From contig CAWHUF010000014.1 of NCBI GenBank assembly GCA_963832495.1, positions 279,308-343,307 on the forward strand: DNA of 64,000 nucleotides, written 5' to 3'. Source of the stretch: an uncultured Acidobacteriota bacterium (GTDB lineage Bacteria; Acidobacteriota; Thermoanaerobaculia; Multivoradales; UBA5704). Made by a program: the position numbers and the translations under genes. The number at the start of each line of letters is the position of its first letter. Position 1 is the first letter of the stretch. The notes under the pieces are model-generated. The model did not search any database and was not told the origin of the DNA. It saw only the letters and a list, made by a program, of their open reading frames with translations. Below, in pieces: positions 9,170 to 47,541 of the stretch.

Positions 9170-9184
9170 AGATCGCGATGTTCG

Positions 9185-12100: not shown

Positions 12101-15100
12101 GCACCTCAGCTCCCGGCAGGGAACGCCAATCCCCCGAAGCCGGCCCAGACCAAGCTGCTGCTGTGGTCCAAGAATCCGTTCGACTTCATACGTCGTACAG
12201 GCTCATCGTGGGAGGAGTGGGTGACGGACGGGATGCCGGACTACCCTTGCATTCCGCCGCTTCCGGCCCAGGAGATCTGTTTCGATTTCGCGGACCTGGC
12301 TCCGGGCACGGTCATCCAGTCCCCCTGGATCCATCCCGGACCTCCCGTGTTCACCCTGTCCTGGGGGTTCGGCCCGGCGACGGTGCAGGAGCGCCTCGTG
12401 CCGGTCCCCGGGGCTGTGCGGAAGGTGAAAACCCTCTGCTTCCCCGTGGCCGCGGCCCGGAATGGAGTGCAGATCCATTCGGACCAGCCAGGCCGGTCGT
12501 TCCGTATCGTCCTGGCCCAGGGGGAAGTTGCGCAGCCGGTCCCTACTGCTTCCGGGGTCGCGGTGGCACCTATTTTCACGACTATCGACGATATTCCTGT
12601 GTGTATTGACTTCCGGAGGTGGACGGTCGGCACGCAGGTAAACCCGTGGGTGGAGGAGGGCGTTCGCTTCGAGGTCCGCGGAGCAGATGGCGGGCTCCTG
12701 CCCGTGGCCCGGGTCGAGCGGTGGGGCTCGGGTCTTCCGGGCCTGGGCGCCGGCTTCCGGCTCGACGTTGCCCTGCCTTGCCCCTCCCCATGGGTGGAGT
12801 TGGTAGTCACCCATCGTCCCCCCTTCCGGATCGTGGCCTTTGACGCCAAGGGCGTGGCAGTGGCCACCCATGCACCAGGAGGAACGAGCGGTGAGGTGAC
12901 TGAAACAATCCGCTTGGAGGGGCCGGCCATCACCCGGGTTGAGGTGCACGCGGCGGGCAACGAGAAGCTGGTCCACCGGGTCTGTTACACCTGTCCACGG
13001 CCGAAGGTGCCCTGGGCCACCGGCTTGGGTGCAGATGGTGAGGTCTTCGGACCGTTCTTCCCGGTCGGTGGCGATATTGAGATCCCGGGGGAGGACATGC
13101 CCGAGGTGGTGGTGACGAACGACGGGCCTCTTTGTCTGGAGCGGATCTGCGTCACACCGGACCCGGAGACCGGCCAGGAGGTGCGGCGGAAGGAGGCGAT
13201 CGAGCACATCCGTGAGGAGTTGGCCCGCTGGCGGCAGGAAGGGGCGGTGCTGGCCCCCCACACGGCTTACAGGCTGGTGATCGAGACCTCCGTCGCGCCC
13301 CAGGCCTTGGTGAGCCTGAACAACTTCCCTCCATCGAGCCTTGACCTCACGCCGGTCGAGTACGCCTACTTCCGGACCTCCGGCCCGCCCGGGCTGGGGG
13401 TTCTCGATCCACCGGAAGGCCTGTCGCCATCCACGGTCTTCTCGACCGGGCTCGACGACCTCACCCGGTATGTGCGGGAGACGACGCCGCCCACGGTGCC
13501 GCCGCCGGGAGAAAAACCGATTCTCTTCAAGCCGTTCTATCGTGCCTATGACATCGGGGTGGAATTCAACGAGGACTACGTCGAGCAGATGTACCGCATG
13601 GACCGGCGGGACCTCGGGCTCTATCTCTACGACAACAACAACCAGCCGGTTCGAGATGCGGAGGGGCGGCTCCTGGTCCTCGGCAACCGGTGGGGGAGGG
13701 CGGAGACGCTCAGCCTCTCCGAACGGGACACCCGCTGGGTCACGCTGATCGACGCCGCCACCTGCCTGCCGAAGAAGCTCGATCCCAAGACCTTCCCGCG
13801 CGACAGCACGCTGGTGTCTTCGGAGCCGGGCCGGGTTCTCGCCGCGGACACTCTCTACGAGCCGCGCCTGGTCCCCATGCTTCTTCACGAGGCCTTCTCA
13901 GGTTCTTCCCTGGGCGCTGTTCCTCCCGGCTGGTATCGAGAGGACTCGGGGCCGGGCGGGCCGTCGGACTGGAAGGTGGGGGAGGCGGGGGAGCCTCCGA
14001 GCCGGTTCGTGGAGCAGCTCTCGACGATCGGCGGCGCCGGGCCGGATCGGCCGGGCACGCTGCTGCTCCTGGCCGAGTCCTCGGCTTGGACGGACTACCG
14101 GGTGAGCGTCTACGTCGGCTCGGCGGCGGGCGGGGCCGTGGGCGTGGTGGTGCGCCACCAGGGGCCGGGCACGGGCTACCGGTTCTCCCTCGATGGCCGG
14201 GTCCGGCGGCTGGTCAAGGGGGATGCCACTCTCCTGGGTGAGGATCATTTCGCGTACCGGAGGAACCGGGACTATCTCGTGACGTTCGAAGCCCTGGGCT
14301 CCTCGCTCAAGGTCTATCTGGACGGCGAGCCCGTGTTCGAGGTGACGGACGAGGACTTCAAGACCGGCCGGATCGGCCTCTACGTGTGCCAGAGCCCGGG
14401 CGCGCGGTTCAGCGACGTGCGGGTGGACGACTTCCGCGCCGAGGCGCCGGTGGTCTACCGGTTCCAGCTCACCACGTCCCTGTTCGCCAACTTCTTCCAT
14501 CACCTCCACAGCTTCCAGGACGAGACCTGGCGGGCCGAGCTCGAGGAAGATCCCGGGGGCCTGCTGAAGGAAGCGGTGGAGCTTTCGCTCTCGCCTCCCG
14601 ACGAGAAGGAGGCTCGGGCTTACGAGGCGCTGGCGAAGAGCGCACTGCAATCCGCTGCGCTCCAGAACCCGCGGCAGGTGGAGGTCACCCGCCTGGAGTG
14701 GGAGAGCCAGCCCGTGGCCTTCCTGCTGCGTAGCCCCGAGCCCCTGGCCTGGGACCGCGTCTCCATGGCCTTCTTTATCGGGCCTGTCCGCGACCTGCCC
14801 GCGGAGCCGCCCGGCGCGGTGAAGCTCGTGGAGGCGTCCTTCGGGACCCTGCCGGGCGACGAGTCCGTCACGCTGCTTCTGCGCGAGGCGGTGGACCTCT
14901 CCCGGTGGCGGATCGAGCTGCGCCTCCCTTCCGGTCCCCTGCCGGAGCCGGAGGGGGATCCCGTGATGCTCCTCGAGAGGTTCCAAGGCGATCCCCAGGC
15001 TGTGCTGGACCGCTTCACCGTGGCCGATATGGGAACGGAGAACGGTCCCTCCGACTGGCGAGTCGAGGGCGGAGCGCTGATCCAGGTCTCGGAGATCCAC

Positions 15101-16555
15101 GGCGGCGCCGAGCCGGAGCTGCCGGGTACGGTGGCGGTGACGGGCGATGCGGACTGGACGGACTACCGGCTCGCCGTGGACCTGCGGTCGGACTCGGGCA
15201 GCGGCCTGGGGATCGTGTTCCGCTGGGTAGACGGCGACAATCACTACCGTCTCTCCCTCGACGCCGGGCTCAAGTACCGGCGGCTGGTCAAGCGCGAGAA
15301 GGGGGTGGTCTCCATCCTCTGGGAGGAGGAGAAGGGGTACGCGGCGGGCGAGCCGCTCCGGCTGACGGTCGAGGCCGTGGGCTCCCGGCTGACGGGCTTT
15401 CTGGGAAGCGACCGGCTGTTCGAGGTCACAGACGCCGCCCACGCCGCCGGCCGGGTAGGGCTGTACGCCTCCGGCAATCCGGACGCCCGCTTCGAGAAGA
15501 TCGAGGTGCGCCAGCCGTCCCTCGACGTCTATGCCCTGGTCCGCGACCGGTTCGCCGCGGGGGACCTTACCGGCTGGCTGCGGACCGACGAGGCCGCGGC
15601 GCCGCAGCCTTCGACCCTGGAGGCCGTTGGCGGAGCGTTGATCCTGCGCAGCTTCGTCCAGGAAGAGGACGGCGGGACCTTCCCCGGCAGCTACGCCTTC
15701 ATCGGTCCGCCGTTCAAGGACGCCGTCTGCAGCGCCAGACTGCTGTGCCATTTCGGCGGGGCGATCGGGATGGTCGTCCGCGGCCAGGATTTGAACAACT
15801 ACTACCGCTTCTCCATGGACGCCCAGAGGGGCTACCGGCGGCTGGTCAAGAAGGTGAAGGGCCAGACCACCGTGCTCTGGGAGGACGGCGTCGCCTACAC
15901 GCCGGGCCAGGTCTACGAGCTGACCGTGGCGGCCGTGGGCACCTCGCTCCGGGGCTATCTCGACGGCATTCCCTTGTTTTCCGTGGAGGATGGGGACGTC
16001 TCCGCCGGCGTCATCGCCCTCTATGCCTGGAACAATCCTGAGGCCTTATTCTCCCAGGTGCGGGTCTTCCCTGCGGACCGCGCCGTCGAATCCTCTCCGG
16101 AGCCGCGGTGGACGACCTGGTACGCCTTCGGTGGCGAGGAACGGCTGCCGGCGGGCACCCGGCTCCGGATCTCCGCCGGACCCGAGGCGGGAGCGCCCCC
16201 TGCGGAGCCAGGGACCGAGCGCCGCTTCGCCGCTCCCCTGGGAGAGACGGGCCGCGCGCGTTTCCCCGCCACGGAAGCGGAGTTGCGGGTGGTGGGGCCG
16301 GAAGGGCCCGGGCATACCCGGACCCTCCTGCCCTATTCGGACTATGTGATCCTGCCTCCGCCCCGGGTGTTGCGCCGGGCAGATGGCACCGGGCTCGTGG
16401 TGGTCCCCTCTGGCGGCTCGCCTCTGGGGGAGGCGTGGTACCAGTTGAGCTTCACCTACGACCGGAAGAGGGGGGAGGAGGTCCATCCCTTCAGCCAGGC
16501 AGGAGACCAGAACCCGGAGAGGGTCACAATCGACATCCCCTGGAAGGCGCGCTAG
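9185..16555 (+). CDS. giant hypothetical protein (2456 aa) with three tandem LamG/DUF1080-like (concanavalin-like jelly-roll) modules near the C-terminus
   Basis: A single 7.4-kb ORF. It has three ~190-aa repeats sharing WTDYR / GxG(V/I)V(V/F)R ... YR(F/L)S(L/M)D ... RRLVK ... LxGED ... Y ... VxxxGxxLxxYLDG ... F ... D ... GR(I/V)GLY ... RF..V(R/E)V. An unrecognised N-terminal ~1500 aa precedes them. There is no signal peptide. It ends 12 nt before the histidine kinase gene. Confidence 0.65.
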   Translation: MEKRMEETKPIQDLWLSLADVLPEGWRSGGAAVILEDLSFVDALLSSEGDDRFTLAITIGSDTPLDLEIPGLPDLGITVGEFDNFGYTLELEYAAGVLSASVVDVPITIYLPDSFLRPVDDEDGLGLIGQGVFRISSRGEIQIQLVDGLNLPSCYLGDSGIIISASNLDVDLSVVSSPPEVLAAGFDESFIGLYFQEVRITLPAGFPSLAPEDLVLKKCVIGSGGVSGELDLTYTPKYDAASKTFSGPGAGDLFGISFGLEHVQVMLRKNALTKSSFIGKLLLPFFEEPVEVDVGFDLDGNVTVEITGSGAGGLKTITKPNVMSIELDSIGAELDDGLFAVKIAGKLTPLFGGLDWPTFDVKELSIDSKGHVHLDGGWLNVPEQKTLDFYGFKIEISQLGFGKNDDGSKWIGFSGGLKLVEGLQAGASVEGLQITWREDGSLPRITLNGAGVELSIPGVLHLKGEVSYKELEIDGETIRRFDGGIHLSLETPELEIDGTLVIGSVKGPQGRYNFFAIYVDVDLPTGIPLASTGLGIYAFAGLFALQMEPNKRPDEMWFSIDHSKSFYHRDTPGITDLKKKWDPRKGSFAVGAGITLATLSDNGTTFNGQFLLALVTPGPIALIQGAASFLKKRADGKDEGQFRALTVIDGRAGSILIGIDAEYKTGRGGEMIEIGGSMEAFYAFHDPTAWRLYLGKNEPRELRIRALLGRFVEANAYFMLDAHQLALGAWFGYNNGWSFGPLSIRLEAWADGNALLSFKPSHFHGDLWLHALVELKVFGLGLGLSLDAKIAADLFRPYHLRGEFSVGIKLPWPFKKKIGATVVLEWGPRPDAPPLPLPVADVAVEHRKSTVVWPLNRGRYLLPSYDDGGGFLAQSGPHLQPDLSKLPRVPVDGRISVTFGRSVHDVSMVGSNVQPVDPTKERIGNPGGPAVVEVKYSLTRTALESWDGQGWQTVAASPKTGITPSLYGMWVPAPQLPAGNANPPKPAQTKLLLWSKNPFDFIRRTGSSWEEWVTDGMPDYPCIPPLPAQEICFDFADLAPGTVIQSPWIHPGPPVFTLSWGFGPATVQERLVPVPGAVRKVKTLCFPVAAARNGVQIHSDQPGRSFRIVLAQGEVAQPVPTASGVAVAPIFTTIDDIPVCIDFRRWTVGTQVNPWVEEGVRFEVRGADGGLLPVARVERWGSGLPGLGAGFRLDVALPCPSPWVELVVTHRPPFRIVAFDAKGVAVATHAPGGTSGEVTETIRLEGPAITRVEVHAAGNEKLVHRVCYTCPRPKVPWATGLGADGEVFGPFFPVGGDIEIPGEDMPEVVVTNDGPLCLERICVTPDPETGQEVRRKEAIEHIREELARWRQEGAVLAPHTAYRLVIETSVAPQALVSLNNFPPSSLDLTPVEYAYFRTSGPPGLGVLDPPEGLSPSTVFSTGLDDLTRYVRETTPPTVPPPGEKPILFKPFYRAYDIGVEFNEDYVEQMYRMDRRDLGLYLYDNNNQPVRDAEGRLLVLGNRWGRAETLSLSERDTRWVTLIDAATCLPKKLDPKTFPRDSTLVSSEPGRVLAADTLYEPRLVPMLLHEAFSGSSLGAVPPGWYREDSGPGGPSDWKVGEAGEPPSRFVEQLSTIGGAGPDRPGTLLLLAESSAWTDYRVSVYVGSAAGGAVGVVVRHQGPGTGYRFSLDGRVRRLVKGDATLLGEDHFAYRRNRDYLVTFEALGSSLKVYLDGEPVFEVTDEDFKTGRIGLYVCQSPGARFSDVRVDDFRAEAPVVYRFQLTTSLFANFFHHLHSFQDETWRAELEEDPGGLLKEAVELSLSPPDEKEARAYEALAKSALQSAALQNPRQVEVTRLEWESQPVAFLLRSPEPLAWDRVSMAFFIGPVRDLPAEPPGAVKLVEASFGTLPGDESVTLLLREAVDLSRWRIELRLPSGPLPEPEGDPVMLLERFQGDPQAVLDRFTVADMGTENGPSDWRVEGGALIQVSEIHGGAEPELPGTVAVTGDADWTDYRLAVDLRSDSGSGLGIVFRWVDGDNHYRLSLDAGLKYRRLVKREKGVVSILWEEEKGYAAGEPLRLTVEAVGSRLTGFLGSDRLFEVTDAAHAAGRVGLYASGNPDARFEKIEVRQPSLDVYALVRDRFAAGDLTGWLRTDEAAAPQPSTLEAVGGALILRSFVQEEDGGTFPGSYAFIGPPFKDAVCSARLLCHFGGAIGMVVRGQDLNNYYRFSMDAQRGYRRLVKKVKGQTTVLWEDGVAYTPGQVYELTVAAVGTSLRGYLDGIPLFSVEDGDVSAGVIALYAWNNPEALFSQVRVFPADRAVESSPEPRWTTWYAFGGEERLPAGTRLRISAGPEAGAPPAEPGTERRFAAPLGETGRARFPATEAELRVVGPEGPGHTRTLLPYSDYVILPPPRVLRRADGTGLVVVPSGGSPLGEAWYQLSFTYDRKRGEEVHPFSQAGDQNPERVTIDIPWKAR

Positions 16556-35950: not shown

Positions 35951-36021
35951 GCGGGGGCCGAGGGTAGCATGGGACGCGCTATGCTTCCCTCCACATGACC
36001 CCACCCTACGGCTGTCAATCC

Positions 36022-36864
36022 ATGGTCGCCCCTCTCCGCAGAGTCCTCGTCCGCCGTCCCGGCGAGGCCTTCGGCGCCGCCGATCCGGTGCGCTGGCACT
36101 ACACCTCCCGTCCCGATCTCAACGAAGCCCGTCGCGAGCACGACGCTCTCGTGGAGGTGCTGCGCGAATTCGGGGCCGAGGTCATCGAGCACTCCGAGCC
36201 CCTGCCGGACCGGGCGGATTCCATCTATGTCTTCGACCCTGTCCTCATCACCGAGCGCGGCACGGTCCTCCTGCGGATGGGCAAGGCCCTGCGCCGGGGC
36301 GAGGAGGAGGCCCTGGGCCGCCGCCTCCAGGAGATCGGCATCCCGATCTTCGGAGCCCTCCAGGGCGAGGCCACGGCGGAAGGAGGAGATCTCCTCTGGA
36401 TCGACCGCCACACCCTGGCCGCGGGGCAGGGTTTCCGCACCAACGCCGAAGGGCTCCGACAGCTGCGCGACATCCTTTCTCCTCTAGGAGTCGAGGTGAT
36501 CCCCGTCGAGCTGCCCTACTTCGGAGGTCCCGAGGCCTGCCTCCATCTCCTCTCCCTGATCAGCATGCTGGACCACGACCTCGCGGTGGTCTATCCGCAG
36601 CTTCTGGCAGTCCCCTTCTGGAACCTGCTGCGAGACCGGGGCATCCGCCTCATCGAGGTGCCGGAGGAGGAGTGGCCCACCCAGGGCCCCAACGTCCTGG
36701 CCCTCGCCCCGCGCAAGCTCCTGATGCTGGAAGGCAATCCCGTGACCCGCCGCCGCCTGGAGGCGGCGGGCTGCGAGGTGAAGACCTACAAGGGGAACGA
36801 GATCTCCCTCAAAGCCGAGGGTGGGCCGACGTGCCTGACGCGGCCGGTATGGCGGGACGGTTAG
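36022..36864 (+). CDS. dimethylarginine dimethylaminohydrolase / amidinotransferase-family protein
   Basis: It reads MVAPLRRVLVRRPGEAF ... SIYVFDPVLIT ... EGGDLLWI ... and ends in a C-terminal Cys (EGGPTCLTRPV). This pattern is typical of the DDAH / arginine deiminase fold. Confidence 0.65.
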   Translation: MVAPLRRVLVRRPGEAFGAADPVRWHYTSRPDLNEARREHDALVEVLREFGAEVIEHSEPLPDRADSIYVFDPVLITERGTVLLRMGKALRRGEEEALGRRLQEIGIPIFGALQGEATAEGGDLLWIDRHTLAAGQGFRTNAEGLRQLRDILSPLGVEVIPVELPYFGGPEACLHLLSLISMLDHDLAVVYPQLLAVPFWNLLRDRGIRLIEVPEEEWPTQGPNVLALAPRKLLMLEGNPVTRRRLEAAGCEVKTYKGNEISLKAEGGPTCLTRPVWRDG

Positions 36865-36976
36865 ATCCACCCCTTCCGGGCGGTGCCCCGCTGCAGATCC
36901 CTTGCTACATTGGAGCGGCTCCAGCCGCGCCATTCCTGCGCGCCCTTCCCCTGGAAGCTCCTGGAGGGACACTCCC

Positions 36977-37300
36977 ATGGCCACGACGATGGATACCACG
37001 CTCGGCGAGAAGGCACCTGGCAGGCCCCGGCATCGGGAATTATCAGGACGTCGAGAAGATCCTCCCAGCGGCCTACGCCTCGCTCCTCACTCTCAAGGAG
37101 ACGCAGATCGCCCTCACCGCCCTCAAGCGCTACATCAAGGATAACCTCTGCAAGGAGCTGAACCTGATCCGTGGCGTGGTGCCGCTGATCGTGGACGTCG
37201 AAAGCGGCGTCAACGACTACTTGGACCGCGACGGCTCGCGCACCCCGTCGGGTTCCATATCTCCAACGATCACGGTCAGAACCCTATCGACGCCCAGGGC
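36977..37300 (+). pseudogene. asnA: aspartate--ammonia ligase, N-terminal fragment (frameshifted)
   Basis: After MATTMDTTLGEKAPG the frame shifts. The next frame gives YQDVEKILPAAYASLLTLKETQIALTALKRYIKDNLCKELNLIRGVVPLIVDVESGVNDYLDRDGSRTP, which resembles the AsnA N-terminus (... [31 protein letters not shown] ...). Confidence 0.6.
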
Positions 37301-37345
37301 CTCGGCCAACTTGCCCAACCCAGTGTACCCTCTGGTGGTGGTAGA

Positions 37346-40264
37346 TCAATCGGATTCGAGCACTTCCCTCTCGTCACTTGTGCTCGGTTGTTCAGCCTCC
37401 TTGCCCTTGTAGGCTTCGATATAGGGTCGTAACTCGGTAAAGGTATGTCTCAGGACATGCCGTCGCTGCTTCCAATCGTAAGGGATAGTCGGCCGGCCTA
37501 CGTGCTTCTGCCAAAGCAGGTCGATTGGGGTTGAAGCAAGACTATTTATTGAGGGTTTCGGATAGATCTCCGCCAGCACAACCGGCAACTCCTCCGCGAA
37601 GGTCTCGGAGTTCTCGCCGATTCTTACGAACTCGAGAGTCGAGTCCGGGCAAGCCCCGGAAGCCCAGAGTTCCCAAGCCGAGAAGTCCTTTTCCTTGCGG
37701 ATCCTGGACATCGCCCAGCGAGGAAGCCGCATGCGGTCCTTCCCGGTGCGGAGACGATCGGCCCAATCCTTTCGGATGAGAAGACGGACACCTCTTGGAC
37801 TCAGTATTCGCCACAGGAAGTTCTCTGGTTCGGCACCTAGAATCTTGCGAATCCAATGATCAATGGCAAGTTTCCTGTTATCCAAGTCAAACCAAACTAT
37901 GGGAGAAGGCAGTGAAGTATCCACGCTATTCAACAACTTCCGGATGAGATAATACGGTACAGCCACAACGGACCGTCCTGCTCTCGCAACTTGGAGGTTA
38001 TGTCCAGTTAGAATGCCGGTGCCTTCGGGTGAATGAAACCAAGCGATTTGTGCCGGGGGAAGTCCAGCATATCCCGATGTCATCTTCTCCCACCTACTTC
38101 TGGGCGCTGTGAGTGCTGCGTGAGCGATAAAATCGCGGGTCACATCTTCGAGTAATTCGCTTTGAAAAGGTAATTCTTTTTGGGTTAGTGCCGTCCGGCT
38201 CAGATTGAGCGGAAGCTTCCCGTCAGGATCAAAGATGGATAGATTTGGAGTACGAAGCGACCAACCATCGGATACGCTTTCAAGTCGCATAAGAGGTGTA
38301 GAAAGCCCATGCGTTATTTTAATTCCATTGCACACCAGTGCCGGGACCTTTGCATAGGTCCATTGGACATCTTCGTAGTCAGGTACAAGGATTCGGTGCC
38401 AGCCCTGGGGTAGTGCAACTCTCGAGCTGGGTAGAGTATGCACCTGCGCAAGATTTCTCGGCTTCTTTGCGTGAACATCCCATACTCTTCTAACCATCTT
38501 GGGCTCGGAGAGGCAAAACCAATCCCAGGCCTCCGCTTTTGCTAAAGCCTTCAAGGAGTTGACGCTGAGCCTCACCTTAATCGTTGTACCTATCGACCTA
38601 TGGCACCTCCGAAGTTCGATGTTGTCGGTATCTAGTTTGGCTCTGAAGCAAAATCCATCGGTGCTGTCGATGTGCCTCGTAGATACCTCTAGCTCTTCTC
38701 CCAGCAGGAAGGCAGCTAAGGCTCCGATTCCAAATCGGCCCGATCGTAGTATCAAGGATTTTCCTGCTTGGTCCTCAAAAGTCTTGCGCCATAGATCACT
38801 TCGGCGAAAAGAGGCTCCAACCTTGAGGAAATAGGAACAAATTGTATCAATTGTCATTCCTATCCCTTGATCCTCTACGATTAACCAGGAACCCTCGTTT
38901 GAATCTCTCCTGACCTCAACATTAATATCTGGATCCTGTGTTCCTGCCAGATTAATCTGGAGAGCCTCTCGATATAGCCACAGTTCACGCACAGCATCCA
39001 GTGAGTTTTGGATCAATTCTCGGACACCGATCTCGGGCTTATCGCCATAGAGTGGCTCGACTAGCAGGGGAATCAGATCACCGCTTGCAGCTTCGAATGC
39101 CGCCCGCCTCGGAACGTACTCCACTAGCAGTCCGAAAGCTTCCTCATCATCGAGTGTTGATCGCACCCGTCGGGGGGTCAGCCCAAGTCCTTTTAGCTCC
39201 TCCCAACGGCCATAGACTTCCCCTAAGACCGCCCAAGAGACATCGAGTTCTTCTTGTAGGCCTGATAGAAGCTCTTTTAATGCCAAGTAACGGTCGACGT
39301 CCTGTGGCAAAGTGTCAACAAAGATCGCTTCTGGATCTTCATGCGTAGTCCGAATGTCCCTTACGGCTTGGTGCTCCTTCCATTTGCCAAGCGAGAGAGG
39401 GCTCCATAATCGTTTGACTTGGAGAAGCTGTTTAGGTGCCCGATCCGCCTCTACTTGGAGGTAGTCGGAGATGCGAAGGAGAACCATTAGGAACACCGCG
39501 TGAACACCTCGGTACTGTCGCAAATCATAGGCAGTCCGCAAGGGATCGAAGAGCTCTCGGAGCGGCATGCCATGGCTTCTTGCCACCAGACCCGCCAAAT
39601 CGGCAAGATCCTTCTCGAGACTCAGGCGGAGAGGTTCTCCGCCTGAACGGCCTGGCACACCCCAGCGCGCAATCTCATGAGCCAGGCGATGATGGTGGCG
39701 GCGCAAGAAGTCCCCAATCAAGAGGCGATCTCGCAGAGTCCAATCTCTTGGATCCGAAGCAGGTTGACGCACGGGCTCCAAGTCGCCGTAGAGGTTCCTA
39801 AGTTCCCGTCCGTTGAAGCGGCGTGCCAGCGAAAGGTACTCTTCCCAAAGAATGGGCCAAGGCCGGTCACTCGGAAGTAGGACTTCCGCCCTCACTAGTC
39901 GAGGGTTGATTAACTGGAGGAATCCATCGTCGGTCAAGTGCATTGCGGCGTCGTGTAGAAGACCTGCCACAACCAGGACTGCAGCATCAGCGGCTGTGAG
40001 AATCGGCCACGCCTCGTCCCTTAAGATCGCAGCGGCGGTCTGTAGCACGCTCTCAACGTGATCGGGATCGTGCCGTGTGTACTCTGGGAAGAACGGAGTG
40101 CCGCTTAGCTCCATCCAAGGTCTGAATTCTTCCAAAGCTTGGAGAGTCGCCGAATAGAGAGCTCGATCTCGTTCTAGAAGCTGCAGCAGCCGTATAGGTA
40201 TCTTCAAGACAGTTTCCCTCTCGCGAGAAATAGTAACTTTAGCGCAAATAGCCTTCAAGCTCAA
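37346..40264 (-). CDS. HD-domain + GHKL/HATPase_c_3 ATPase protein (972 aa), AT-shifted foreign insertion; candidate defence or selfish gene
   Basis: The N-terminus has an HD motif (RHDPDHVESV ... LLHDAAMH ... HHHRLAH). The middle has a Bergerat-fold ATPase N-box (GVRELIQNSLDAV), G1 box (LIVEDQGIGMT) and G2 box (GRFGIGALAAF). The gene is visibly AT-richer than its flanks, for example ttaatatctggatcctgtgttcctgccagattaatctgg. It occupies the gap between the two asnA fragments. Confidence 0.7.
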   Translation of the reverse strand: MSLKAICAKVTISRERETVLKIPIRLLQLLERDRALYSATLQALEEFRPWMELSGTPFFPEYTRHDPDHVESVLQTAAAILRDEAWPILTAADAAVLVVAGLLHDAAMHLTDDGFLQLINPRLVRAEVLLPSDRPWPILWEEYLSLARRFNGRELRNLYGDLEPVRQPASDPRDWTLRDRLLIGDFLRRHHHRLAHEIARWGVPGRSGGEPLRLSLEKDLADLAGLVARSHGMPLRELFDPLRTAYDLRQYRGVHAVFLMVLLRISDYLQVEADRAPKQLLQVKRLWSPLSLGKWKEHQAVRDIRTTHEDPEAIFVDTLPQDVDRYLALKELLSGLQEELDVSWAVLGEVYGRWEELKGLGLTPRRVRSTLDDEEAFGLLVEYVPRRAAFEAASGDLIPLLVEPLYGDKPEIGVRELIQNSLDAVRELWLYREALQINLAGTQDPDINVEVRRDSNEGSWLIVEDQGIGMTIDTICSYFLKVGASFRRSDLWRKTFEDQAGKSLILRSGRFGIGALAAFLLGEELEVSTRHIDSTDGFCFRAKLDTDNIELRRCHRSIGTTIKVRLSVNSLKALAKAEAWDWFCLSEPKMVRRVWDVHAKKPRNLAQVHTLPSSRVALPQGWHRILVPDYEDVQWTYAKVPALVCNGIKITHGLSTPLMRLESVSDGWSLRTPNLSIFDPDGKLPLNLSRTALTQKELPFQSELLEDVTRDFIAHAALTAPRSRWEKMTSGYAGLPPAQIAWFHSPEGTGILTGHNLQVARAGRSVVAVPYYLIRKLLNSVDTSLPSPIVWFDLDNRKLAIDHWIRKILGAEPENFLWRILSPRGVRLLIRKDWADRLRTGKDRMRLPRWAMSRIRKEKDFSAWELWASGACPDSTLEFVRIGENSETFAEELPVVLAEIYPKPSINSLASTPIDLLWQKHVGRPTIPYDWKQRRHVLRHTFTELRPYIEAYKGKEAEQPSTSDEREVLESD

Positions 40265-40288
40265 GGAACTTTACGAGGGGCAAGTCAT

Positions 40289-40828
40289 TTGGCATGTACC
40301 AAAGCCCACGTCTTGAGTGGGTCTGCCGAGGAGATTCTGGACATGTACCCACACCTCCCGAAGAAGACCCGCGAGACTGCCATCCTCCAGAAATGCCTGG
40401 CCGTCTTCATCATCGGCATCGGCTGGACTCTGGCGGACGGCTACCTTCACGAGATGCGGGCCGCGGACTACGACGACTGGGTCACCGAGACCGTCTCGCC
40501 GGACGGTCGCCTGATGCACGGCCTGAACGGCGACATCCTGGTCTGGAACCCGGTGACGAAGAGGCGGCACGCACTGTCCTCTATGGGCATCCGGGTGACC
40601 AAGGAGACCCTGGTCCAGCAACTCGAGCTGACGGACCAGATGGACTTCCTGAAGCTGCCCCACCACCAGGCGGTGCTGAACGACGAGATCCCGCTCTCGA
40701 TCCATCGGCCAGTCGAGGACCACCATGCTGCTCCTCAAGAAGGCCCACCTCGGCGAGTTGAGCGTGACCGTCTGGCCCAAGGTGCTCAAGGAGATGTGCC
40801 AGCGGAAGAACATCTTCGTGCTGGAGTA
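40289..40828 (+). pseudogene. asnA: aspartate--ammonia ligase, C-terminal fragment (frameshift plus small deletion near 40710)
   Basis: It reads ... VRAADYDDWVTETVSPDGRLMHGLNGDILVWNPVTKRRHALSSMGIRV ... , matching the AsnA C-terminal half. Near LSIH the expected GGGIGQSR segment is broken. The alternative frame continues IGQSRTTMLLLKKAHLGELSVTVWP ... to a stop at 40826-40828. Confidence 0.7.
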
Positions 40829-40853
40829 GAGAGGCTCTAGGAAACCCCCCGGA

Positions 40854-40909
40854 TTTGTCCTGCCAAAAAGGACAATTTCCGCCGATCTGTCCTTCCAGGA
40901 AGGACAGAT
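40854..40909. promoter_or_regulatory. two palindromes upstream of vapB (candidate operator; first one may also act as the asnA terminator)
   Basis: The palindromes are TTGTCCTgccaaaaAGGACAA and CTGTCCTTCCaGGAAGGACAG. They share TGTCCT/AGGACA half-sites and lie ~100-150 nt upstream of vapB. Confidence 0.4.
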
Positions 40910-41004
40910 CGCGTGTCTTCCCTGGGGAGCGCGGGCATCCCTGCCGGCCTTCCTGATCTCCCAGGGTACTTGAAAACTTTCGAGTCTGGAGCCAGAATTC
41001 AGGC

Positions 41005-41265
41005 ATGACCCTTACGCTGGATCTCCCGCCGAAGCTCGTCGATGAGCTTGCCGCTGAGGCCGCCCGGCTGGGCCTGTCCGTCTCTGAATATGCCGCGCGT
41101 GTCCTCTCCCAGGACAGGAGCTTGAGGGCGGCGCCCAGGACCGGTGCGGACCTGGTCGCCTACTGGCAGGAGGAAGGTCTGGTAGGAACCCGGCCCGAGA
41201 TCACGGACAGTACGTCCTACGCGCGTGATCTGCGGCGCGAGGCCGAACGGCGGAAGCTCTCGTAG
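41005..41265 (+). CDS. vapB: type II antitoxin (VapB-like)
   Basis: An 86-aa protein sits immediately upstream of a PIN toxin and overlaps it by a few nucleotides. It has an N-terminal DNA-binding-like segment and a C-terminus rich in charged residues. Confidence 0.65.
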   Translation: MTLTLDLPPKLVDELAAEAARLGLSVSEYAARVLSQDRSLRAAPRTGADLVAYWQEEGLVGTRPEITDSTSYARDLRREAERRKLS

Positions 41266-41268
41266 AGG

Positions 41269-41652
41269 ATGCTCCTCCTCGATACAGACGTTCTCATCGA
41301 CATTCAGAAGGGACGCCCTCAGGCTCTTGCCTGGTTCGGTAGCCTGACGGAGTTGCCATCCGTTCCGGGCGTGGTCGTCATGGAGTTGATCCAGGGCGCA
41401 CAGAACACGCAGCAAGTCCGCCAAGCTCTGAAGCTGGTAGCTCCCATGCCCGTCGTCTGGCCGACAGAGAACGACTGCGCCCGCGCTCTCTCCGATTTTT
41501 CCATCCTCCATCTGACCCACGGTCTGGGGCTTCTGGACTCGCTGATCGCCGCTTGCGCTCTGGGGTGCTCGGCGACTCTGTGCACTTTCAACTCCAAGCA
41601 CTACAGAGCTGTTCCCGGTCTGTCGATCCTGGAGCCTTACGTTAAATCGTAG
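41269..41652 (+). CDS. vapC: PIN-domain ribonuclease toxin VapC
   Basis: It begins MLLLDTDVLIDIQKG, the canonical PIN N-terminus with acidic residues. It has ~127 aa with conserved D/E positions. Confidence 0.85.
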   Translation: MLLLDTDVLIDIQKGRPQALAWFGSLTELPSVPGVVVMELIQGAQNTQQVRQALKLVAPMPVVWPTENDCARALSDFSILHLTHGLGLLDSLIAACALGCSATLCTFNSKHYRAVPGLSILEPYVKS

Positions 41653-41959
41653 CCGGCTCAGATCAGACCGCACCCTCTCCTCTGAACAAACCTCCACCCA
41701 TCACCCGCTCTTGGGGAGTTTTAAAGGAGGGCCGGCGGGCCGGGCCGGCACTCCGTCCCGCCGGTACATCAAATGTCAAAGAGCTGCGTTTCTCTCAATC
41801 CGCAAATGCTTTTTCGTAGATGTCGGAGAAACTCCTCCTCTATTCCAATAGGGAGGATTTACTGCTAGGGTGACGGCATTCTCGGGACAGATCTACCGCT
41901 TGTCAATAGGGGCTCGCCATTTTGCGAGCGAAACGCGCAATTTGGCTCCTGCGGCTCTT

Positions 41960-42245
41960 GTTGCGAGCTTGGAATCCACTGGATTCTGGTTTGGAGGAAG
42001 TCTCTTCAAGGTCAGAATCCAGTGAATTCGGAAGTGAAATCCAGTGGATTCTGGCCAGAAGCATTCATTTCGAGATCGGAATCCAGTGGATTCGAGTCTC
42101 GAAGCATTCATCTTGGTCGTAGAATCCAGTGGATTTCGTTCTGGAATCCAGTGGATTCTGGTCTCGATCTCAATGCTTCTGCCGCTGAACGAGTGGATCT
42201 GAATCTTGAAATGAATGCTTCTGCGATGGAATCCAGTGGATTCGA
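41960..42245. repeat. cluster of about 7 copies of a 15-bp perfect palindrome GAATCCA(G/C)TGGATTC interleaved with GAAGCATTCA/TGAATGCTTC motifs, in a ~0.7-kb AT-shifted non-coding region
   Basis: Copies are read directly at about 41967 (GAATCCACTGGATTC), 42086, 42144 and 42228 (GAATCCAGTGGATTC). One-mismatch copies lie at about 42010, 42038 and 42122. Spacing is irregular, so this is not CRISPR-like. Confidence 0.75.
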
Positions 42246-42922
42246 GAATGGAATCTCGTGTCCCGGGAATGGTGGTGACGGTTTTGAGAACGGAATCGCT
42301 GGGTTATGGCTCTAGACAGAAACGCTGGAGGTCCGTTACTCTGGATTCGCCAGGTCCGATGAATTCTCCGAGTAAAACTGAGGGGACCTGCCATCCCGGT
42401 GAAGGTTGGCCAGGGTGGGCTCATTGACAAACGATGTGAGTTTTACCCGGGAGGTGGCTTGGGGCGGCCACCTTCCGGTCCCTCCTGTTTGAAGGGATCA
42501 GCAGGCGTGAAGTCGAGGTGGGCAGGCTCGAAGTCGTTGACGCCTCCACCGTATCGTTGCTTCAAGGCCTCAACTCTTTGCAGGAACTCTGCACCACCGG
42601 TCTTCTGGGTTCTCTTCTTCATGGCCATCGAGTCTACTGGATGGTCCTTCCCAGCCGAAACGACCGGTTTCTGTAGGGGCGGTCCGCAGGATGCCGTAGG
42701 CACCCTGCGTGGCCGCCCTGGGCTGCGCCAGACCTATCCCCGTTGTCCGTCCGTGCTCGTCCGTGTTTGTCCGTGCTGATGGCGGTCCGCCCGGGTTTCT
42801 CGCGGCCCTTCAGGCCGCAGGACTGTCGGGACCTGTTGACCCAGGGCATCGGCCTACCGGCCGAAGCCCTGGGCTGGAGTCTCGCGATCCTTCGGGCCGC
42901 AAAAACGAAGCTTACGCTGCCC

Positions 42923-45403
42923 TCACTGGACGTTGACGCGGGTCGAGATGCCGAAGGTGCGGGGCTGGTTGACCAGGTAGCCGACGCGCGCGCGCGTGCC
43001 GCGCTCCTGGTCGAGGGCGAGGAGGGCGCGCTCGTCGAACAGGTTGTTGACGAACACCGCGAATTCCCACCTGCCGGTGAGGAATCCGAGGCGGAGGTTC
43101 GCGATGTCGTAGGCCGGCAGCTCGGGATCGAAGGTGAAGGTGCTCTGGGTGAGCGGGCCGCCGATCGTGTTGGCGCCGAACGAGTTCAGGTTCACGATGC
43201 CGAAGCCCGCGGCCTGGTCGCCGATCTGGGTGAAACGCGAGCCGACGTACTGGTAGGTGCCGGTCAGATAGCCCAGCCAGTTCTGGCTCATCGGCCACTG
43301 ATAGGTGCCCGTGGCCGAGCCCTGGAACTCGGGGACGGTCGGCAGCCGGTTGCCGGACTCGATGCCGGCGACGACCGTCACGTTGCCGGCCGCGTCGGTC
43401 GAGGTCAGGGTCGACCGCAGCTCGGATTGCCCATAGTTGGCCGGCGATGGTGAAATCGAAGCTGTCGGTCGGCGCGGCCGCCCACTCGAGCTCGATGCCG
43501 GTGCTCCGCGCCTTGGGGACGTTGAAGATCACGCGCGAGGAGCACGTGCCGGCGGTCACCGTCGCCTGGAGGTTCTCGATGTCCATGTAGTAGGCCGAGA
43601 CGTTGAACGTTCCGCGGCCGCCGCTCAGGGTGGACTTGGTGCCGACCTCGTAGTTCCAGATCTCTTCGTCTTCCCACTCGTCGCGCCCGCCGAAGGTCAC
43701 CAGGTCCTGGGGGGTGCAGAGAGGCACGTTGAGCGGATCGTTGATGCCGCCGAGCCGGAAGCCCTTCGAAACCTGGGCGTTCAGCTTCGTGCCCTCCCGG
43801 ACGGCGAAGCTCGCGATGAGGCGCGGGGCGAAGCCGTTCGCCGAGGTCGAGCCCTCGCTCGTTCCGGGATCGGCGAAGATGCCGTCGAAGGTCTGGATGC
43901 GGTCTTCCTGGAAGTCGTAGTAGCGCAGGCCGCCGGTCAGGTCGAGGCGGTCGTTGACCGCCCAGGTGGCTTCGCCGAAGAGCGCGAACTGATCCATCTC
44001 GTAGCTCAGGTCCGAGAAGAAGAGCACGTCGCGCGCGGCGCCGAAGCTCCCCGCGGTGGGGATGCCGGTCAGGGTCTCGAAGCCGGAGACGAGGAGGCTC
44101 TGGCCGTAGTCGCGGTCCATGGTGCTGTAGAAGACGCCCGGTCAGCCAGTTCAGCCGGTCCCGCTCGCCGGCGAGGCGGAGCTCCTGCGTCAGCACCTTG
44201 GCGGTCGTCGCGTCGTCGAGCGGCGCGTCGAGGGTGTAGACGTTCTCCGGCAGGCCGATGCTGCCGCCGGTGATGCTCGCGGTCAGCGCCGTGGCGTCGC
44301 GGACGACCAGGATGTCGCGGTCCGTGTAGGAGGTGATCGAGGTCAGGGCCAGGTTGCCGAAGTCGTAGTTGATGTTGAGGTCGGCGAGCAGGAACTCGTC
44401 GGTGAACGGCTCCTCGAACTGGGTGAACTGCTCGCGCTCGTCCAGGTCCACCGCCGGCCGGGTGGTGGTGTAGGGATTGGCGAGGATGTTGAAGGCGTCC
44501 TCGCGGTTCCAGCCGTCCGTTTCCACCTTCTGGTAGAGGATCCGCGGGGTGATCGTCAGCCGGTCGTTCGGCTGCATCCGGAGCGCGAGGCGGCCGCCGG
44601 CGCGGTCGCCGCTGTTGACGTCTTCCTTGATGCTCAGGCCGGGCTGCACGGCGTCGATGAACCCGCCGAAGCTGTTGTAGAAGGCGGTGAAGCGCAGGGC
44701 GGTCTTGTCGCCGAGCGGCGCGTTGACCGCCACCTTGGCGCTGCCGCCGGCCTCGCCGTCGGTCAGGGTGTTGGCGGTCAGCTCGGCCACGGTCTCGTGC
44801 TCGCCGAGCTGGGGCTGGTTGGTGATGTAGCGCATCGTGCCCGAGGCCGAGCCGGCGCCGAACAGGGTGCCCTGCGGTCCGCGCAGCACCTCGACGCGCG
44901 ACATGTCGAAGAGGTCGATGTCCGGCGTGAAGAGCGAGAGCGAGATGCCGGAGTCGTCGAGATAGACGCCGACCTGCTCCTTGACGCCCGGCTGGTCGCG
45001 GACGATCTGGCCCGAGGAGACGCCGCGGATGGCGACCTGGCTCTGGCCGGGGCCGAGGTTCTGGACGGTGAAGCCCGGGGTGGTCTGCGCGATCCCTTCG
45101 ATGGAATCGACGCCCTGCTTGCGCAGCTCCTCTTCGCGTGGGCGCCGCCACGGAGAAGGGCACGTCCTGGACCTTCTCCTCGCGCAACGTCGCCGTGACG
45201 GTGATCTCTTCCGTCACCTTCTCTGCCGGCTCTTCGGGCTGGTCTTGCGGGTCGGCTGGTTGACCGGCCTGTTGGTCCGCGGGCGGTGCGGGTTCCTGGG
45301 CCGTCGCGGGCCGGGCCAGGAAGGTCAGGGTCAGGATGGCAAGCCCGAAACAGCTGACGGCCTTGCAGGCAAAGCGCCAAAAGCTCGAATCGCTGATCAT
45401 CAT
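42923..45403 (-). CDS. TonB-dependent outer-membrane receptor, reading frame broken at about 3 positions (near 45130, 44110, 43410)
   Basis: The N-terminus has a signal peptide (MMISDSSFWRFACKAVSCFGLAILTLTFLARPATAQE) with a GGAGGA RBS, and a plug-like segment. The middle and C-terminal barrel segments lie in ORFs 43405..44904, 42912..44120 and 42923..43381 (MSRVEVLRGPQGTLFGAGSASG ... ). Together they cover one receptor. Confidence 0.7.
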
Positions 45404-45508
45404 GAGATGTCCTCCAACGAGAACGCCGCCGCACGGAATCGCCCGGCGGCCATTGCTTGCGGAATCCAGCCCTACGTTCTGAGTTGGCTAATTTAGCACA
45501 GGGGACGT

Positions 45509-46912
45509 TCAGACCGTCCTGGAGTAGCGGGCCGAAGCTCCCGCCCGCAGATAGGCGTCGAAGGCCATGGCCACGTTGCGCACCAGGAGCCGGCCCCGGG
45601 GGGTGACCTCGATCGTGTCCCTTCCCAGCGCGACGAGGCCGTCGTCGGCCATGGGCACGAGGCTGTCGAGCTCCGCGGCGAACTGGTCGTCGAAGCCGAT
45701 GCCGTGCTTCGCCTCGAGCTCCCGCTTGTCGAGGCGGAAGTGGCACATCACCTTCATGATCACGTCGTGCCGCAGGCGGTCCTCGGCGGACATCACCAGG
45801 CCCCGGGAGGTGGCGAAGCGGCCTTCCTGCATGGCCTCGCCATACTCGCGGAGGGTCTTGGCGTTCTGGGCGTAGCCGCCCGCGACCTCGCTGATGGAGG
45901 AGACGCCGAAGGCCACGAGGTCGCTCTCGGCGCAGGTGGTGTAGCCCTGGAAGTTGCGGTTGAGCGTGCGGTCGCGCAGGGCCTGGGCCAGGGGATCGCC
46001 GGGCTTGGCGAAGTGGTCCATGCCGATGAAGACGTACCCGGCCTCGGTGAGGGCGGCGATGGACTGTTCCAGCATGGTGAGCTTGTCCGCCGGCGCGGGC
46101 AGGGCCGCCGGATCGATCACCCGCTGGTGGGCGAACATCGAGGGCAGGTAGGCGAAGTTGAACAGGGCCAGCCGGTCGGGCGACATGCGGAGGACCTCGC
46201 GCACGGTGGCGGCGAAGGTCTCCGGCGTCTGGAAGGGGCAGGCCGTAGATCAGGTCCACGTTGAGGCTGGTCATGCCCCGGGCGCGGGCGGCGTCCATGA
46301 CCGCCCAGGTCTCCTCCACGGACTGGACGCGGTTGACGGCCTGCTGCACCTGGGGATCGAGGTCCTGAAGGCCCATGCTCAGGCGGTTGAACCCGCCGGC
46401 GGCCAGGGCGTCGAGCTGTTCGGGGGTGCACTCGCGGGGATCGATCTCGACGCCGATCTCGCAGTCCGGGGCGAAGCGGAAGTAGCGGCGCAGGAGGCTC
46501 ATGAGCTCGGTCAGGTCCTCGGCCGGCAGGAACGTCGGCGTGCCGCCGCCCCAGTGCACCTGGACGACCTCCCGGCGGCCGGCCTGCAGCCTCTCGGCGG
46601 CCATCTCCATCTCCCGCGCCAGCATGGGCAGGTAGCGCTTGCCCCAGGTGCGGTCGCGCGAGATGGTGACGTTGCAGCCGCAGAAGAAGCAGCGCACGTC
46701 GCAGAACGGCACGTGCACGTAGAGGGAGAGCGGCCGTTCCGGGTGATTTCCGGGGTCTCCGCTCCGGGAGAGGAGGCTGGCGAAGTCGGCCGGGCCGAAG
46801 TCCTCCTCGAACTGCGGTGCCGTGGGATAGGAGGTGTAGCGGGGACCGGGCTGGTCGTACTTCACGATCATCTCCCGGTCGAAGCGGATCGGCTGCCAGA
46901 GGTCGTCCATGG
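45509..46912 (-). CDS. hemN: oxygen-independent coproporphyrinogen III oxidase (radical SAM), single-C homopolymer frameshift near 46235
   Basis: It has the CDVRCFFCGC radical-SAM cysteine motif and GGGTPTFL. The C-terminal half (ORF 45509..46204) continues ... FQTPETFAATV ... after an extra C in gcccctt. Confidence 0.85.
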
Positions 46913-47019
46913 AAGGTAAGCGTAGGAGCCTCCGGACGATTGCGCACCACACCGGGGGAGGGTTCCGGAGCCGCCCGGTTTGGCCTACCCGGTGGCTACC
47001 CGGCGGGGTGGGGGCTTTT

Positions 47020-47541
47020 TCAGGTGGCGCAGGTCCGGTCGTGGATCTTCTGCGCCAGCGTCTCGATCCTCTCCGTGAGCTCGCGGGTGATGCGGGTCAG
47101 CTCGGTGTTCTGTTCCAGGAGTTGGAAGATCTGTTCCTGCTGGCGGGTGGCGATCTCCTGCCGTTCGAGGCTCGCGGTGGCCAGAGCCTCCCGGTGCTGG
47201 GCGTCGGCCTCCGTCAGGGCCTTGTCGCGGTCAGCCTGCCGCGTCTGGGCGAGGAGGATCAGCGGCGCCGCGTAGGCGGCTTGGGTGCTGAACGCCAGGT
47301 TGAGCAGGATGAAGGGGTAGGGATCGAAATGGGCGAGCCCCCAGATGTTGAAGCCGATCCAGAGGGCGACGAGCGCGCTCTGGGCGATCAGGAACAGGGG
47401 CGTGCCGAAGAAGCGGGCGAAGGCCTCCGCCTTCTGGCCGAACCAGTCGCTGCCGAAGGCCGGGGCCAGATGGCGGTGGGGAGCATGGAAGCGCAGGTGG
47501 TGCGGCGAGGCGGCGGCTGGCTTGGACGGGTCCGAGGACAT
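47020..47541 (-). CDS. DUF1003-family membrane protein
   Basis: I chose the internal start MSSDPSK with a GGGAGA RBS. It has two TM helices (FLIAQSALVALWIGFNIW ; FILLNLAFSTQAAYAAPLIL) and a coiled-coil tail. Confidence 0.6.
   Translation of the reverse strand: MSSDPSKPAAASPHHLRFHAPHRHLAPAFGSDWFGQKAEAFARFFGTPLFLIAQSALVALWIGFNIWGLAHFDPYPFILLNLAFSTQAAYAAPLILLAQTRQADRDKALTEADAQHREALATASLERQEIATRQQEQIFQLLEQNTELTRITRELTERIETLAQKIHDRTCAT

Follow-up and report, generated by a model that had tools for sequence, protein, structure and literature searches.

The asnA locus and its single-gene cassette

The sequence analyzed here, referred to as the window, is a 64-kb stretch of contig CAWHUF010000014.1 from an uncultured Acidobacteriota bacterium. 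The gene under study lies on its minus strand and encodes a protein in which a predicted HD phosphohydrolase domain of the HD-CE type precedes an Hsp90-type ATPase. Its coordinates and those of the other features are collected in Table 1. In agreement with an earlier reading of the DNA letters (the original prediction), one minus-strand open reading frame (ORF) fills the gap between two halves of asnA, the aspartate-ammonia ligase gene, extending over 37346-40264 between collinear remnants that are both on the plus strand. This ORF encodes 972 amino acids (aa) if the TTG at 40264 is used. The TTG at 40207 is the likely true start, since a public copy of the protein (P0001), 100% identical to that of the window, is 953 aa long and since the homologue alignments begin at the position equivalent to 'KIPIRLL'. 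In the presumed regulatory stretch (promoter and ribosome-binding site), GAGAGGGA precedes TTG 40207 by about 8 nt and a weak TTGAGC-17-TAAAGT is also present. No minus-strand site near the cassette passed a promoter scan at a 9-of-12 threshold, and a terminator scan likewise gave nothing convincing. Residues are given below in the 972-aa numbering unless stated otherwise.

The GC content of the ORF is 0.530, compared to 0.662 for the whole window and 0.67-0.68 for the flanks, and the ORF is the lowest-GC 3-kb stretch within the 64 kb. At third codon positions (GC3) the value is 0.53 for the ORF, 0.855 for the ADI-like gene upstream, 0.92 for the C-terminal fragment of asnA and 0.73 for vapC. 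The AT-richness noted originally was therefore borne out, and asnA itself was judged compositionally native from its high GC3 (0.92 in the 3' remnant). The nearest relative, L128, is 71% identical at the DNA level and has the same GC content of 53%; its contig starts within the gene and diverges before the 3' end, so it has no shared flank by which the cassette could be bounded. A shift toward AT relative to the flanks was found in all 33 of 33 homologous loci, with a mean of 8.9 percentage points. A foreign origin was deduced from the low GC and GC3, the matching composition of L128 and this general shift. The gene is a horizontally acquired 3.0-kb single-gene cassette, as had been proposed, and its 2.9-kb ORF is intact although frameshifts mark the neighboring genes.

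The 5' remnant of asnA scored 24.8 bits (E 2.2e-5), slightly below the Pfam AsnA gathering score of 27, and its reading frame breaks near 37246; no similarity to anything was detectable for 37227-37345. The 3' remnant scored 82 bits and matches Pfam AsnA profile positions 161-227 of 228, beginning at about nt 40322. With an E. coli AsnA query, tblastn placed residues 170-291 at 40325-40702 and, after the frameshift, residues 295-324 at 40704-40793. Since profile positions 42-160 (about 120 codons, or about 350 bp) are missing between the remnants, the cassette was concluded to have replaced part of asnA rather than to have split it cleanly. The original description of an insertion splitting asnA was thus correct as to the remnants and is revised to a replacement in which about 350 bp were deleted, situated in a 10-kb variable and decaying hotspot. 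The asnA gene is now a multiply frameshifted pseudogene whose central ~120 codons have given way to the cassette.

The junctions showed no direct or inverted repeats above a background of short, imperfect, chance-level matches. No tRNA gene was found in the 64-kb window, Rfam gave no match in 36.5-47.5 kb, and inspection by eye of the ORFs in 36.5-47.6 kb (at least 50 aa up to 43.0 kb and at least 130 aa beyond) revealed no integrase or transposase, which upholds the absence of integrase, transposase and direct repeats reported originally. The hallmarks of a transposon, insertion sequence, integron or integrative element were accordingly absent, there being no recombinase, junction repeats or tRNA; this holds for searches that included no attC-specific model. 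Among 40 metagenome relatives found through the ADI-like protein there was no empty-site allele with an intact asnA, and in none was asnA downstream.

Table 1. Features of the cassette and its surroundings in the window, with mean pairwise identities of regions of the protein family
Feature	Position (nt)	Strand	Remarks	Mean pairwise identity
Variable hotspot holding the cassette	36865..47028	(.)	comparison with L087, L116 and L090	
asnA 5' remnant	36977..37300	(+)	HMM-supported core ~37107-37226; Pfam AsnA profile positions 2-41	
HD-CE/Hsp90-like gene	37346..40207	(-)	953 aa plus stop from TTG 40207; upstream in-frame TTG 40264 gives 972 aa	
C-terminal region	37349..38107	(-)	hypervariable; no known fold relative	
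Residues 701-890				25%
Hsp90 middle-domain-like segment with catalytic loop LPLNLSR	38108..38527	(-)	loop at nt 38195-38215	
Proximal middle segment				47%
Hsp90-type GHKL (Bergerat) ATPase N domain	38528..39112	(-)	residues 385-579 (972-aa numbering)	56%
HD-CE phosphohydrolase domain	39242..40090	(-)	residues 59-341 (972-aa numbering)	58%
AT-rich short 5' flank of cassette (presumed promoter and ribosome-binding site)	40208..40290	(-)	direct sequence reading	
asnA 3' remnant	40322..40828	(+)	AsnA residues ~170-324; frameshift ~40702	

Domain architecture of the encoded protein

The N-terminal domain matched Pfam HD-CE (PF24391) over profile positions 1-262 of 263 with 147.9 bits (E 5.7e-43), far above the gathering score of 27, and the protein was therefore assigned to this family; the HD domain type is thus one already catalogued in Pfam. 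Its set of metal ligands is complete, comprising H65, H69, H104-D105, H191, H231 and D267 (H46, H50, H85-D86, H172, H212 and D248 in the 953-aa numbering). These ligands are invariant in 30 close homologues and are 100% kept in 40 distant relatives that are only 22-27% identical. The extended H..HD..H..H..D set is taken as a sign of a binuclear center in HD enzymes, and the pattern is associated with binuclear HD phosphodiesterases such as HD-GYP, PgpH and Cas3. On the basis of this ligand set, cleavage of phosphodiester bonds in nucleic acid or nucleotides is favored as the predicted output. In a structure search, the closest HD folds were the C-terminal domain of PPX/GppA and the cyclic-nucleotide phosphodiesterases, and neither Cas3 nor SAMHD1 was among the top 60 fold matches. 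The 'HD nuclease-like' label of the original prediction was thus not substantiated.

The ATPase N domain carries the key residues E416, N420, D423, D465xGxG and G509RFGIG, and Pfam HATPase_c_3 matched residues 411-536. The motifs first quoted for the two domains (LLHD at 102-105, RRHHHRLAH, ELIQNSLDA, DQGIGM and GRFGIG at 509-514) are all intact on invariant columns. In the 40 distant relatives, E397, N401 and D404 (953-aa numbering), DxGxG and GxxGxG are 100% conserved, so no degeneration of either the HD or the GHKL motifs was seen. Given that the residues of both domains are fully kept at 22-27% identity, both predicted enzymatic activities are evidently under selection.

Several comparisons place this ATPase with Hsp90. 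The NCBIfam HtpG model matched with E 5e-20 and 71.5 bits, well short of its equivalog cut-off of 371, and the HSP90-family model gave 68 bits against a cut-off of 455; from these sequence scores, the protein is classed as an Hsp90-like paralogue and not as HtpG. The best phmmer matches in the PDB were the N domains of GRP94 and HtpG (E 6e-12, or 5e-20 using the family profile), in an alignment that takes in the Hsp90-specific segment 'AFEAASGDLIPLLVEPLYGDKPEIGVRELIQNSLDA'. The Hsp90-specific N-terminal pattern 'FxAE..L..LI..LY' is present in the window protein. A profile built from 100 members aligned continuously with E. coli HtpG residues 9-309, that is, into the middle domain, ending just before the loop described below. 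The AlphaFold2 model made from 100 sequences (pLDDT 88.4, pTM 0.83) was aligned by Foldseek over about 500 columns to full-length HtpG, TRAP1, GRP94 and Hsp82 (E 4e-13), covering the N and M domains. The MORC half of the MORC/Hsp90-type assignment made originally was thus lost and the Hsp90 half retained. MORC/paraMORC had been tried as a candidate assignment and was rejected on the ranking of matches, with Hsp90s first by sequence and fold and no conserved restriction-modification partner; this comparison did not extend to a residue-level check of the MORC-specific motif (PMC2292703).

The segment that follows contains the motif LPLNLSR (residues 684-690), which we take to be the Hsp90 middle-domain catalytic loop LPLN[LV]SRE that bears R380 in yeast and R336 in E. 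coli. The corresponding arginine, R690 (R671 in the 953-aa numbering), is invariant among close homologues and is kept in 36 of 40 distant relatives. When the middle region alone was compared by sequence to the PDB, no Hsp90 and indeed no match at all was obtained, so the assignment of the middle domain rests on profile, fold and motif. The region called uncharacterised in the original prediction is therefore in part an Hsp90 middle domain, and the description still applies to the remaining 260 aa. These last 260 aa have a confidently predicted fold and are hypervariable; no solved structural relative was found for them, and they matched neither the distal middle domain nor the dimerisation domain of Hsp90. 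The variability suggests a sensor-like role, and the domain is a candidate specificity module.

Distribution and genomic contexts of the family

The first search returned at least 430 homologues of the same architecture (950-1010 aa, 37-68% identical), and at least 506 relatives were confirmed in a scan of one genome per GTDB species. Among the GTDB matches listed, the phyla are Acidobacteriota, Chloroflexota, Proteobacteria, Bacteroidota, Chlorobi, Nitrospirota, Actinomycetota, Firmicutes and Planctomycetota, and the archaeal carriers are Methanosarcina and one Promethearchaeota genome. A full HMMER search of 1.84 billion proteins with the HD-CE domain found 1,591 cluster representatives (50% identity), for 825 of which the E value was 1e-30 or better. 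From these numbers and the many phyla involved, the family was deduced to be rare yet very widely scattered. Most of the best 150 HD-CE matches are proteins of about 1,000 aa that carry the domain N-terminally, and about 15 shorter entries look like fragments. The element had been called possibly novel; it is not unique, given that its HD type is already PF24391 and that its relatives number over 1,500 when clustered at 50%, while the suggestion holds for the fusion to the extent that no paper on it was found.

Family members are always solo genes of about 1,000 aa. In the close clade, no neighbor was common to 34 loci, and a single ORF cluster (3 loci) had no fixed position. The 40 loci of the distant clade likewise had no neighbor at a fixed position, and one cluster spanning 10 loci varied in both size and position. 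The 148 nearest ORFs of 23 loci matched 152 Pfam families, nearly all of them once, and their few PADLOC matches included a type I methyltransferase, PDC-M11, PDC-S02, PDC-M24 and mad2. The contexts are mixed, with some copies in defence-island, prophage or toxin-antitoxin settings and others among housekeeping genes. Defence, mobile-element or toxin-antitoxin genes were found near L081, L083, L084, L085, L007, L008 and the window copy, which is a raw tally and not corrected for background.

The most suggestive of these settings are as follows. The homologue of L008 (Serratia montpellierensis, 6839-15208) is part of a lambdoid prophage, where it is flanked by a DnaT-like replication gene and by DUF1367/antiterminator Q, and an early-region position of this kind often carries accessory or defence genes. 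The neighborhood of L083 (Sorangium) contains toxin-antitoxin pairs, HNH, RadC, IS21, NACHT and RHS. In L085, Uma2 adjoins the homologue and a PIN toxin-antitoxin pair is nearby; in L007 (Ralstonia), Mrr_cat adjoins it; and in L084, a Shedu gene is 3 kb away. The neighborhood of L081 comprises ArdC, ParB, SSB, a helicase with MTES_1575, a protein combining a reverse transcriptase with a nucleosidase-type domain, and a PHP-ATPase.

Two of these loci have further features of their own. In L081, the segment 13356-19471, next to the homologue and within the element bearing ArdC and ParB, encodes two proteins of note: one of 837 aa that joins a reverse transcriptase to a PNP_UDP_1 nucleosidase-type domain, and one of 895 aa that combines PHP with an AAA_23/AAA_21 ATPase and is read as Ppl-like. 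This segment looks like a defence island, possibly with uncharacterised members. In L084, a 124-aa fragment at 9415-9789, directly upstream of the homologue, contains only ILV_EDD_C, the C-terminal domain of dihydroxy-acid dehydratase, and an intact ilvD gene lies 4 kb off. This may be another case, like that of the window, of the gene standing beside a gene fragment.

The variable region around the cassette

Soil-metagenome relatives of the window have the ADI-like gene (35995-36864) in common, with 80-90% protein identity, and L087, L116 and L090 also have the gene that starts at window position 47029. The spacing between these bordering genes is 1.4-3.7 kb in the three relatives compared to 10.2 kb in the window, and both asnA and the cassette are absent from these soil-metagenome relatives. 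As the content of the window between the bordering genes is missing from L087, L116 and L090, the interval 36865-47028 was concluded to be a variable hotspot. Besides the cassette and the two remnants of asnA, it holds vapBC, an array of palindromes and two frameshifted genes, one for a TonB-dependent receptor and the other hemN. The receptor gene (42912-45403) is split across at least three reading frames, and the hemN-like gene (oxygen-independent coproporphyrinogen oxidase, 45509-46952) is broken by a frameshift; together with asnA, this makes three decayed genes within about 10 kb. Long ORFs elsewhere in the window are intact, for example one of 2,456 aa, which favors genuine decay over general sequencing error as the source of the frameshifts, without proving it.

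Beyond the 3' remnant of asnA lies a vapBC-type pair (41005-41652) encoding an 86-aa RHH antitoxin and a 127-aa PIN toxin. Upstream of it are two 28-nt direct repeats (40847-40874 and 40879-40906), each with a TGTCCT...AGGACA palindrome, and a sigma-70-like site at 40970-40998; these plausibly form a putative autoregulated operator and promoter of vapBC. Between vapBC and the broken receptor gene is an AT-shifted, non-coding stretch with no Rfam match, in which the 15-bp palindrome GAATCCAGTGGATTC occurs in seven copies (0-1 mismatch) within 270 bp (41972-42243) and nowhere else in the 64 kb. This amounts to 14 strand-hits, compared to 0.1 expected. By its sequence, the array looks like an iteron, operator or centromere-like set of binding sites and is perhaps a relic of a mobile element.

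The window has a second low-GC stretch at 7500-10000 (GC 0.52-0.53). It covers the end of a 1,505-aa ORF (3715-8232), a 315-aa ORF (8222-9169) with the zinc-protease motif HEFGHLLG, and the start of the 2,456-aa ORF (9185-16555). This may reflect either a further foreign segment or a module of unusual composition within a giant-protein locus.

Proposed function and alternative explanations

We consider it about an even chance that the protein is an ATP-gated single-protein conflict enzyme directed against phages or other mobile elements, by analogy with VcSduA. In the proposed mechanism, the Hsp90-like module would act as an ATP-driven dimeric clamp or switch, as in Hsp90 and other GHKL clamps, and the fast-evolving C-terminal domain would recognise a cue from the invader, which could be a protein 'client' or a nucleic acid. 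The HD domains sit directly upstream of the ATPase N domains, such that ATP-dependent closure could join or unmask two HD domains, which would then hydrolyse phosphodiester bonds in nucleic acid or nucleotides. The outcome would be destruction of the invader or arrest of the infected cell. If this is true, the gene is a compact one-gene immune or conflict module in which the effector, an HD domain, is controlled by a true Hsp90-type ATPase rather than by MORC, SMC or STAND. The defence repertoire would then gain a new pairing of sensor and effector, and the family would offer a tractable bacterial system for studying how an Hsp90 clamp is rewired from folding to signalling.

A more specific form of this proposal, which is speculative and which we think improbable, is a chaperone-derived innate immune receptor. 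Here the Hsp90-type clamp and a diversifying C-terminal domain of new fold would capture phage or invader molecules as 'clients', and ATP-driven N-terminal dimerisation would activate the binuclear HD phosphodiesterase. Such a receptor would embody a sensing principle so far undemonstrated in prokaryotic immunity and would be a prokaryotic parallel to the logic of sacsin, which pairs Hsp90-like and nuclease domains.

A number of observations weigh against a role in conflict. Many homologues stand alone among core housekeeping genes: that of L082 is beside an arginine operon, with an IS200 transposase gene, and that of L126 has lpxD on one side and a Mur ligase gene on the other. The tblastn search found no match in PLSDB plasmids or INPHARED phages, and PHROGs gave only a generic GHKL match. 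PADLOC-DB v2.0.0 has no model for the protein; its weak generic matches were to REase_II, a type II restriction enzyme model (E 5.4e-5 and 0.019), limited to GHKL core residues 446-538, in line with the earlier remark that no named defence family could be matched. No paper was found that describes PF24391 or an HD-Hsp90 fusion, and the family is not mentioned in Kaur et al. 2020 or in a 2025 language-model defence preprint. The HD fold is nearer to PPX/GppA and the cyclic-nucleotide phosphodiesterases than to known HD nucleases. Finally, the dimeric clamp behavior is extrapolated from Hsp90, and it is we who infer the defence role.

The fold similarity just mentioned is also what would be expected if the protein were an accessory factor in stress or nucleotide metabolism, namely an Hsp90-like chaperone paralogue joined to an HD hydrolase of some small phosphorylated molecule, for example (p)ppGpp or polyphosphate-derived or cyclic nucleotides, serving physiology rather than conflict. 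This explanation was judged unlikely. The family is sporadic (about 1,600 clusters in 1.84 billion representatives across phyla), is AT-shifted in 33 of 33 loci, has no conserved neighborhood or operon partner and has a hypervariable C-terminal domain, and a prophage or a defence island surrounds some of its copies; such traits are usual for accessory conflict genes and not for physiological regulators. Less probable still is a selfish element. The protein would then promote its own spread or retention, whether as an addictive toxin-like gene or as a homing-type nuclease making its own insertion sites, or else the gene would be a functionless passenger of illegitimate recombination. The gene did land within another one, part of which was deleted, and neither mobility genes nor repeats accompany it; pseudogenes abound in the 10 kb around it, the homologue of L084 adjoins a truncated ilvD fragment, and in each case a single gene has a different site. 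This explanation is difficult to reconcile with a 2.9-kb ORF that is intact while its neighbors are frameshifted and with catalytic residues kept in very distant relatives, which indicates selection for protein function. Nor does a combination of HD and Hsp90 resemble known transposases, recombinases or homing endonucleases, and no cognate antitoxin or immunity gene was found among the neighbors.

Two further explanations received little credence. A GHKL protein of MORC/paraMORC type, linked to restriction-modification and acting as a DNA clamp in a restriction system, is very improbable because Hsp90s outrank MORCs in both sequence and structure, because the Hsp90-specific 'FxAE..L..LI..LY' segment and the LPLNLSR loop are present, and because no methyltransferase or restriction partner is conserved beside the gene. 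The least credible is an assembly artefact, in which a chimeric join brought a low-GC fragment of another organism into the contig. It could be suspected from the abrupt GC step, the several frameshifted genes nearby, the apparently metagenome-assembled origin of the window and the fact that the protein's cluster has one member, on a 408-kb contig. Against it stands asnA, which picks up again beyond the cassette in collinear order and without a change of strand, an arrangement that a chimeric join would not yield. In addition, long ORFs elsewhere in the window, including that of 2,456 aa, are intact, and the AT-shifted drop-in pattern is also seen in complete genomes such as Sorangium CP150319. 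At the level of the locus, the findings illustrate how one foreign gene can take the place of part of a chromosomal gene with no recognisable mobility machinery, at a site that is a hotspot differing between close relatives.

Comparison with known systems

The Hsp90 proteins (Hsp90, HtpG, TRAP1 and GRP94) are the best matches to the window protein in sequence and structure. They share with it the Bergerat N domain, including the Hsp90-specific segment and all ATP-binding motifs, and the middle segment with its arginine loop (LPLNLSR compared to LPLN[LV]SRE). They differ in that the window protein has an N-terminal HD domain and a C-terminal 260 aa without a match to the distal middle or dimerisation domains of Hsp90, and in that its family is sporadic, foreign and solo whereas Hsp90 is a core gene.

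Prokaryotic MORC/paraMORC proteins, including paraMORC-HEPN fusions, occur in restriction-modification contexts (PMC2292703, PMC3710099). The likeness is that of ATPases with GHKL and S5-like middle domains that are fused or linked to nucleases in conflict systems; unlike these, the window protein was of Hsp90 type in all comparisons made and lacks restriction-modification partner genes. The eukaryotic protein sacsin combines Hsp90-like repeats with a HEPN domain (PMC3710099), in contrast to the HD effector here; size and kingdom also differ, and a direct relationship is not claimed. The HD nuclease of Cas3 and the SAMHD1/bacterial dGTPase enzymes are metal-dependent HD phosphohydrolases that destroy invader DNA or deplete deoxynucleoside triphosphates (dNTPs). 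By analogy, DNA destruction as by Cas3 and dNTP depletion as by SAMHD1/dGTPase are two candidate activities of the HD-CE domain.

VcSduA, a proven stand-alone anti-phage protein, combines a GHKL ATPase with a clamp-like middle domain and a nuclease in one chain, and its protection against phage requires both activities (PMC12137116). Some Shedu proteins have an N-terminal GHKL domain and an Hsp90-like middle domain and have been proposed to be sensors of misfolded proteins (PMC10441436). VcSduA and the type I-D Shedu proteins are thus similar to the window protein in uniting, on one polypeptide, a GHKL ATPase, an Hsp90/MORC-like middle domain and a phosphodiester-cleaving effector, the last being predicted here. 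The nuclease of Shedu is a C-terminal DUF4263 PD-(D/E)xK domain, as opposed to the N-terminal HD-CE domain found here, and the ATPase of the window protein is closer to true Hsp90. As neither Pfam nor PADLOC gave a match to DUF4263/SduA, the window protein is not a Shedu protein. VcSduA is the best functional analogy and the closest working precedent. We rate the general kind, a single-protein effector controlled by a GHKL ATPase, as already known, and the combination of HD-CE with an Hsp90-type ATPase as what is new.

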